The translations under genes were made by a program, and so were the position numbers. A stretch of DNA of 47,540 nt, taken from positions 1 to 47,540 of IMG/VR virus record IMGVR_UViG_3300011654_000001; one strand, written 5' to 3'. The DNA is from a virus. The notes beneath the pieces are model-generated. The model saw nothing but the letters and a program-made list of their open reading frames with translations, was not told the DNA's origin and did no database searches. Below, in pieces: positions 13,768 through 14,435 of this stretch (within the stretch, counting starts at the first letter, position 1; each line of letters starts with the position of its first letter).

Positions 13768-14435
13768 CCAATCATGACTTGAAGGAACTGGCAGCCATGG
13801 GCGCTGAGCTTGGGGCTGCGAAGGCGGAGAACGAGAAGCTGCGCGGGTTGCTGACCACTGCTTGGCGACTGAGACCGGATCAGCACTATCACGAAGATCA
13901 CCTGCAAGCCGAGCAGAAGGCGTGGGAAGTTGAGACCGCCGAAGTGCTGAACGCAGCGGACGCCCTATCCCAGCAGCCCGAGCCCACCGACACCTACACC
14001 GCCGTCGACATGGCCACAGCCGCAGCGCAGGGGTTCAGGGATGGGCAGGCGGCAGTAGAGCAAGCCCCGGTGCAGGATGAGCGGGAGGCGGTGGAGCGGT
14101 TCAGCCCGACGACCAGCGTGCCGCATTGCGGGCGCGCCTCTGAGGTTGAGGCGTATATGACCGAGGATGACGACGGGGAGTATATGACCGTCTCCCAGCA
14201 CGAGCGCATCGTCGCAGCACTCACCCGCCCCGCGCAGACCGAGCAGCAGCCGGAGCAGAGCGGCAAGTTCGCCATGCACCAACGCGTGCGCAAAACATCC
14301 GGCAGTGAATGGCATGGCCGTATCTGCGGCACCTACTCAACTTCACTGACCCCGGAAGGCTACGCCGTAGAGAGCGAGGCTCATGCAGGCAGCGTGCAGA
14401 TTTACCCCGCCAAGGCGCTGGAGGCAGTCGAATGA
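13764..14435 (+). CDS. Ea22-like coiled-coil/acidic protein with a C-terminal DfrB (R67-type dihydrofolate reductase) SH3-like domain
   Basis: 223 aa. Residues 171-223 are [53 protein letters not shown]. Against R67 DHFR residues 26-78, recalled from memory, this aligns without gaps at 36/53 identical. Confidence 0.8.

Follow-up and report, generated by a model that had tools for sequence, protein, structure and literature searches.

A DfrB/R67-type domain at the end of a mosaic early protein of a temperate phage

Introduction

Why should an early gene of a temperate phage end in a domain known from plasmid-borne trimethoprim resistance, and what would that domain do for the phage? The question is raised by the plus-strand open reading frame (ORF) at 13764–14435 (223 amino acids (aa), stop codon included in the coordinates) of the IMG/VR virus record IMGVR_UViG_3300011654_000001, which appears in the ORF list and is also called as a gene in the public assembly. 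The whole stretch of DNA analysed, hereafter the window, comprises positions 1 to 47,540 of that record and is the complete genome of a lambda-like temperate siphovirus with 61.5% G+C. The C-terminus of the encoded protein belongs to the DfrB family, whose type member is the R67 dihydrofolate reductase (DHFR). The explanation that we favour, with a probability of about 0.8, is that the gene encodes a modular early protein with a tetramer-forming DfrB end, within the early-left operon of the phage.

Phage-borne DfrB fusions were already published in 2023 and 2025 and the window protein is a further member of this class, so that the novelty attributed to the fusion in the first-pass annotation, made from the sequence alone, was overstated (PMC9835603, PMC12486381). 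In a search of UniProt, Lemay-St-Denis 2023 (PMC9835603) found SH3-like DfrB domains inside longer proteins; two of these are phage proteins encoded near DNA methyltransferase genes. Several of the long proteins and of the domains excised from them give trimethoprim resistance. The larger collection of Lemay-St-Denis 2025 (PMC12486381) holds 386 homologs, of which 20 are viral and 45 are longer than 160 residues; trimethoprim resistance was conferred by 114 of the 123 predicted to form DfrB1-like tetramers, at identities to DfrB1 as low as 24–55%, and seven long fusions were active. Membership of cluster I/II agreed with activity in 94% of cases, and the authors proposed that the domain natively binds nucleotides or serves to oligomerise, and that it is truly used as a DHFR in phages that carry ThyA. 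Another 2025 study reported eight dfrB-like genes in lytic phages.

Results and Discussion

Identity of the C-terminal domain

The first-pass annotation had read the last 53 residues of the protein (171–223) as a near-canonical DfrB domain; the quoted sequence, the 36 identities over 53 positions in an ungapped alignment with R67 residues 26–78 and the identity of the equivalents of K32, W38, Y46, H62, S65, Q67, I68 and Y69 were all reproduced exactly. When the comparison is extended to R67 residues 22–78, 37 of 57 positions are identical (65%), with K177 of the window protein corresponding to K32, W183 to W38, Y191 to Y46, T196 to T51, H207 to H62 and S210–Y214 to S65–Y69. All residues of the pore (K32, Y46, T51 and S65-V66-Q67-I68-Y69) and of the interface (W38, H62) are identical in the window protein, as is P70. 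W45 of R67 is replaced by Thr, at a position reported to be dispensable in DfrB (PMC9835603).

Profile and structure searches bear this reading out. The Pfam family PF06442 (DHFR_2) matches residues 166–222 with 85.1 bits (gathering score 25, E = 3e-24) along profile positions 21–77 of 78, and the R67 DHFR chains of the PDB (1vie, 2rk1 and others) are retrieved by the window protein with E = 7e-19. In an AlphaFold model built with 40 relatives, residues 174–221 form a five-strand domain with a predicted local distance difference test score (pLDDT) of 83–90. A Foldseek search with this model returned R67 DHFR as all of its seven top matches (1vie, 2rk1, 2rh2), with template-modelling (TM) scores of 0.88–0.92 and a root-mean-square deviation of 1.3–1.4 Å over 57 residues. 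At its C-terminus (residues 166–223, 14259–14432), the protein carries a genuine DfrB/R67-type SH3-like domain whose pore and interface residues are intact. R67/DfrB1 (PF06442; 1VIE, 2RK1) shares with it the fold and these residues and differs in being the 78-aa product of a stand-alone integron-cassette or plasmid gene, whereas the domain of the window closes a 223-aa fusion encoded in a phage early operon.

The same residues stand out when the domain is compared across the phage family described below. In 84 unique family domains, no variation is seen at V30, K32, G35, G40, G44, Y46, T48, T51, H62 and S65–P70; W38 is retained in 83 of them, and the surface positions are variable. The pairwise ratio of nonsynonymous to synonymous substitution rates (dN/dS) of these domains is 0.33, at a median dS of 0.45, which indicates purifying selection.

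A family of mosaic phage proteins

A survey of related phages and prophages revealed that the fusion belongs to a large family. A search of the protein collection with the full-length protein gave 870 relatives at E ≤ 1e-3, and 108 loci were confirmed in IMG/VR, mostly on contigs of 40–55 kb. A same-strand tyrosine integrase gene lies 0.44–2.85 kb downstream (median 1.86 kb) in 58 of the 80 IMG/VR loci that were kept, and most of the others stop before an integrase could appear. One relative is found in an integrated prophage, where Cro/cI genes and, further on, an Erf-YqaJ-SSB set precede the fusion gene, which is followed by one ORF, the integrase gene and then the host genes adk and ppc.

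The proteins of this family share a constant order of parts. The header is followed by a helical insert that varies and then by a conserved junction; next come between one and four unrelated inner modules, divided by the linkers RPAQTEQQP and AAPIAQTAPQ(PEQSG), and an end module closes the protein. To describe how these parts are distributed, the presence or absence of each segment of the window protein was scored in its 120 closest relatives (module clusters obtained by single linkage had merged via shared junction residues, and their counts were discarded). The header (aa 1–30, 13764–13853), which is the conserved onset of a long helix with near-invariant columns, is present in 83 of them; the variable insert V1 (aa 31–66, 13854–13961), for which many alternative inserts exist, in 18; and the conserved junction (aa 67–106, 13962–14081) in 117. 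The variable acidic middle module M1 (aa 107–154, 14082–14225), predicted to be disordered (pLDDT below 50), is found in 19 when scored as aa 107–158, and V1 and M1 occur together in three, so that the segments assort independently among the relatives. The DfrB domain, scored as aa 167–223, is the end module in 111 of the 120. A query limited to the header and junction (aa 1–106) brought up short proteins for the most part, without the long relatives known from the full-length search, and gives no unbiased measure of how many header-family proteins end in DfrB.

The joints between the modules are conserved at the DNA level. A 30-nucleotide (nt) stretch of the junction occurs 63 times in only two variants, with ACA, GCA, GTA and AGG codons kept, and the linker RPAQTEQQP (aa 155–163, 14226–14252) occurs 42 times in related loci in four DNA variants. 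Junction and linker DNA is thus almost invariant across dozens of phages, synonymous sites and rare codons included, while the flanking modules are wholly different and equally conserved peptides within the DfrB domain show ordinary synonymous variation. This pattern suggests that modules are swapped by homologous recombination at the linkers, and the linker at 14226–14252 is likely to be such a recombination joint. A cassette system operating within the phage was considered and rejected, since the window holds a single copy of the linker DNA, at 14226–14252, and no second one.

Two further observations concern the distribution of these parts. The acidic middle stretch (aa 99–163) has counterparts of 87–92% protein identity in two otherwise unrelated phages, Epa5 (MT108725, 46355–46549, where it is unannotated) and ZRG1 (OQ504961, 22538–22726). 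Full-length relatives also occur on short contigs of metagenome-assembled genomes labelled Pelagibacterium and Coriobacteriia, which are probably mis-binned phage contigs.

The N-terminal region and the comparison with Ea22

Residues 1–165 are unrelated to DfrB. In the AlphaFold model they form helices at residues 3–36, 45–69 and 80–96, followed by an acidic, disordered stretch at 97–165; the first helix, which spans the header, is modelled with a pLDDT of 84–89 and is probably a coiled coil. A Pfam search of the window protein at E ≤ 1 found nothing besides DHFR_2, and in particular no match to Ead_Ea22; the N-terminal part had no significant structural match in Foldseek, and its matches in PHROGs were weak and to entries of no known function. 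By these searches, the N-terminal part shows no relationship to Ea22 or to another known family.

The first-pass annotation had called this region an Ea22-like coiled-coil and acidic N-terminus, which holds for position and architecture and fails for sequence homology. Lambda Ea22 (PMC10834534) occupies the same slot of the early-left operon, between the recombination genes and xis-int, and is similarly built: its N-terminal part is short, a coiled coil follows, and its C-terminal domain is variable. Its relatives are likewise highly diverse in sequence. Ea22 is a tetramer (PMC10834534), as is predicted for the window protein. In contrast, the C-terminal domain of Ea22 is a dimeric alpha-beta fold and not an SH3-like DfrB domain, and the two proteins have no detectable sequence similarity. 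Ea22 has a pro-lysogenic phenotype (PMC10834534). The resemblance is one of position and build, an analogy only.

The fusion gene in its early operon

On the plus strand of the window, the gene order is that of an early-left operon: a Rad52-like single-strand annealing protein (9524–10252) and a Gp157/Gam-like protein (10249–10746), which form a recombination module, three small proteins of no known function, a DNA methyltransferase (DUF4942 and methyltransferase domain, 11847–13526), a small ORF of up to 65 aa (13570–13767), the DfrB fusion gene, two small ORFs, an excisionase (14939–15151; Pfam Exc, 76 bits) and a tyrosine integrase (15132–16229). The first of the two small ORFs that follow the fusion gene encodes 54 aa (14432–14596). 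The fusion gene shares an ATGA start/stop overlap with both flanking ORFs, the stop of the small upstream ORF overlapping its start and the start of the 54-aa ORF overlapping its stop codon, and a GGAG Shine-Dalgarno sequence lies at 13754–13757, 6 nt 5' of the annotated start at 13764. The small upstream ORF is also often found 5' of the family gene in related phages. An S24 cI-like repressor is encoded further upstream (5024–5806, plus strand), with a divergent antirepressor and a DnaC-like loader alongside, and the minus strand carries the tail tube, tail L/I-like, tape-measure, capsid and terminase genes and a DUF2514 lysis-region gene. By this arrangement, the fusion gene can be assigned to the early genes of a temperate phage, at the place held by ea22 in lambda.

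No promoter-like or terminator-like site was found near the fusion gene, and the sole terminator-like hairpin of the region (16220–16235) follows int. The possibility of a moron expressed in lysogens was rejected because no promoter or terminator of the gene's own was found. A role in defence was also rejected: the fusion gene and its small neighbours had no PADLOC match, and the methyltransferase alone was matched, by methyltransferase models.

The closest phages at the DNA level are the Pseudomonas phages PS-1, Epa5 and LESphi3 and the Stutzerimonas phage ZRG1, and the named proteins sharing the header (search with residues 1–106) come from Stutzerimonas species. These relatives fit a host of the Pseudomonas/Stutzerimonas type, with which the G+C content of 61.5% is consistent.

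Some other genes of the window are worth recording. The methyltransferase at 11847–13526 matches the PADLOC model mad2 (56 bits) and is 97–99% identical in related phages, in a subset of the loci only. Among the early genes, a 97-aa ORF (11138–11431, plus strand) carries at residues 12–36 a Pfam SutA RNA polymerase-binding domain (33.3 bits, cutoff 29.3) and belongs to PHROG 31907, of no known function; its product could be a phage factor that binds the host RNA polymerase. On the minus strand, a 222-aa ORF (45654–46322) has a dATP/dGTP diphosphohydrolase N-terminal domain (84 bits) and is a second nucleotide-metabolism gene of the phage.

Proposed function of the DfrB end

In the explanation that we favour, the N-terminal 96 residues would form a helical, probably coiled-coil header and residues 97–165 a flexible acidic spacer that closes with the conserved linker. 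By homology with R67, four DfrB domains would assemble into a D2-symmetric tetramer around a central pore lined by K177, Y191, T196 and S210-V-Q-I-Y214, which would bind one NADPH and one dihydrofolate and allow a hydride transfer insensitive to trimethoprim; we infer both tetramer formation and catalysis. The fusion gene would be transcribed as part of the early-left operon, with translational coupling, and its place there suggests that the protein is made during infection or induction and not in a quiescent lysogen. During the evolution of the family, the header, the junction and the DfrB end would have stayed nearly constant, with the inner modules exchanged by recombination at the DNA-conserved linkers. 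The selected role would be to clamp the protein into tetramers, to bind NADPH-like nucleotides, or both, as the 2025 authors proposed, and dihydrofolate reduction would be a real but secondary activity.

Expressed in E. coli, the window protein would probably confer trimethoprim resistance, since its domain has 65% identity to DfrB1 and an intact VQIY motif and lies inside the sequence space found to be active (PMC12486381).

Several observations weigh against our explanation. With the NCBIfam model NF000331 (trim_DfrB), the window protein scores 95 bits, under the cutoff of 137, so that this 223-aa fusion, in comparison with the stand-alone clinical proteins of about 78 aa, is a member of the DfrB family and not a clinical allele. 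Selection on the phage domains is looser than on stand-alone chromosomal dfrB of Burkholderiales, for which dN/dS is 0.09, and the conservation of the domain cannot separate catalysis from assembly because the same residues serve both. In about 8% of the close relatives, DfrB is replaced at the C-terminus by an unrelated module. Finally, the sole member of the mosaic family that has been tested experimentally, DfrB-H3, gave a negative result.

DfrB-H3 and the frameshift in phage PS-1

In the 2023 study, DfrB-H3 was the sole homolog that gave neither trimethoprim resistance nor visible expression, as the full-length protein or as a segment (PMC9835603). The reverse primer 'DfrB-H3-Seg' of that study encodes RWRQWM, which is the C-terminal region of gp05 of Pseudomonas phage PS-1 (BAR92343, annotated 'dehydrofolate reductase'; AP014684, locus 6826–7329). 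Because the primer matches and the linkers are common to both, DfrB-H3 can be equated with PS-1 gp05 and placed in the same mosaic family. Like the window protein, gp05 is a longer phage protein ending in a DfrB domain, with a DNA methyltransferase gene adjacent and an integrase gene near, and it has the PAQTEQQP and AAPIAQTAPQ linkers of the family. The parts are arranged differently in the two phages, header and DfrB domain being united in one protein in the window and divided in PS-1 over the nearby genes gp07 (header and junction) and gp05.

The C-terminus of PS-1 gp05 is also altered. Alignment of its DNA with window positions 14411–14435 shows a 1-nt deletion directly after the AAG codon of the Lys217 equivalent, by which AKALEAVE, intact in the window protein, becomes AKRWRQWMTSADTRLTP (AKRWRQWM...); the last eight residues are replaced and the fifth strand is lost. 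PS-1 is the sole carrier of this frameshift among 74 loci. The frameshift probably explains the negative assay of DfrB-H3, which should for this reason not be carried over to the intact members of the family.

Prokka often labels phage tyrosine integrases XerC or XerD. In the genomic contexts of the 2025 study, annotated with Prokka, 'integrase' lies near only one of 139 homologs, whereas 'xerC' occurs in the vicinity of 23 (median distance 2.0 kb), and the authors saw no link to mobile elements for most homologs (PMC12486381). Considering that the integrase of the mosaic family lies at a median of 1.86 kb, some of these contexts may be prophages.

Alternative explanations

The alternative that survives best is that the native role of the protein is dihydrofolate reduction itself, i.e. 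that the phage has its own trimethoprim-insensitive DHFR, supplying tetrahydrofolate for host ThyA-dependent dTMP synthesis, and that the N-terminal parts do no more than tether or stabilise the enzyme. Parallels would be T4 Frd and the DfrB homologs of phages that have a ThyA, for which a true DHFR role has been argued (PMC12486381), and the fusion gene does lie among DNA-metabolism genes, in a phage that also carries the dATP/dGTP diphosphohydrolase-like gene. Also in its favour is the strict invariance of VQIY, K32, Y46 and T51 in the 84 domains despite the median dS of 0.45, and this leaves it an appreciable weight; the invariance even exceeds what the activity needs, because active homologs tolerate VQLY, VQVY, IQNF and LHIF (PMC12486381). 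Against it, in the window, neither a thymidylate synthase (ThyA, ThyX) nor FolA was found in Pfam scans of 20 ORFs (135–515 aa), and the host is expected to have FolA, which is roughly 100-fold more efficient. The domain is, moreover, almost never stand-alone in the family, the unrelated end module takes its place in some relatives, and an enzyme needs neither a coiled coil nor shuffled modules. A purely metabolic role is weakened by the lack of a detected ThyA, by the fusion of the domain to a coiled coil and shuffled modules and by its occasional replacement, and we consider it doubtful; the clamping or nucleotide-binding role is favoured because the phage was found without ThyA and its host should have FolA.

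A second alternative would dispense with the fusion by translating a stand-alone 53-residue mini-DHFR from the internal ATG at 14274–14276, which is in frame and encodes M171, aligned to Met26 of R67. The first-pass annotation had pointed out that this codon lacks a good Shine-Dalgarno sequence, and indeed the closest GGAG (14252–14255) is 18 nt upstream, too distant to be usable, which makes a separate start unlikely. The Met is an ordinary residue of the domain, internal in R67 too, being present in 77 of the 84 unique family domains and replaced by Ile or Phe in the other seven, and the N-terminal tail of R67 is required for the expression of folded protein (PMC9835603). A mini-DHFR of this kind is therefore very improbable.

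Origin and maintenance of the domain

The first-pass annotation had also proposed that a phage fusion could be a reservoir or ancestor of DfrB. A probably competent catalytic domain carried by a mobile temperate phage would be suited to such a role, but the comparison with R67 residues 22–78 does not bear it out: the phage-family domains are 56–70% identical to R67, against 88–91% (median 88%) for stand-alone chromosomal genes of Burkholderiales. This difference agrees with Kneis et al. 2024 (PMC11662351), who identified Burkholderiales as the original hosts of the clinical dfrB variants. Intermediates more than 90% identical on phage contigs were absent among the domains compared, and the 98% identical dfrB of two Pseudomonas-group genomes (L022, L023) is of the clinical type and not a phage fusion. 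The lack of a detected promoter of its own makes expression of the fusion gene in lysogens doubtful as well, and a scan of species-representative genomes yielded stand-alone Burkholderiales dfrB for the most part, with few fusion genes. An origin of the clinical plasmid and integron dfrB in the phage fusion gene, or a present-day reservoir of them there, is hardly credible.

The chromosomal dfrB of Burkholderiales (Kneis et al. 2024) belong to the same domain family and come from environments with no link to trimethoprim, but they are short and stand-alone and under tighter selection than the phage domains (dN/dS 0.09 vs 0.33). The DfrB genes of Rhizobium phages, Sinorhizobium phage phiM9 and Ochrobactrum phages are of the same domain family and likewise from environments with no trimethoprim link, and differ from the fusion in being short and not fused. 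Pseudomonads are intrinsically insensitive to trimethoprim through efflux, a further point against drug-driven selection in these hosts.

Last, it is extremely unlikely that the domain is a decaying, non-functional remnant passively carried by recombination: a dN/dS above that of chromosomal dfrB, the frameshifted C-terminus of PS-1 gp05 and the inactivity of DfrB-H3 (PMC9835603) would be in line with decay, but dN/dS is well below 1, the core, pore and interface residues are invariant, the frame is intact in 73 of 74 loci, and all 109 relatives listed with the EGYAVES core have a tail of full length, free of truncation and frameshift.

Significance

The locus brings no new principle, DfrB fusions, phage ones included, being known and mostly active. 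What it adds is a mosaic phage family, DNA-conserved linkers between its modules, the frameshift in DfrB-H3 and a possible prophage signature. The sole published negative result for this clade is probably due to a frameshifted template, and the published context analysis may count too few prophage contexts. As regards the surveillance of resistance, the fusion gene is an unlikely source of clinical dfrB.

A large and genetically tractable family of temperate phages of Pseudomonas and Stutzerimonas is thereby identified, in which the native role of the DfrB fold could be tested by the deletion or mutation of one module. A wider reading, which we advance tentatively and regard as rather unlikely, is that DfrB naturally lives largely in temperate phages, as a swappable tetramerising and NADPH-binding end-module of Ea22-like early proteins with inner modules shuffled at the DNA-conserved linkers, and that part of the 'endogenous' context of xerC and replication genes described in 2025 is an unrecognised prophage signature. 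If this were true, the search for the native function of DfrB would shift to the early development of phages, for example to the lysis-lysogeny decision or to host take-over.

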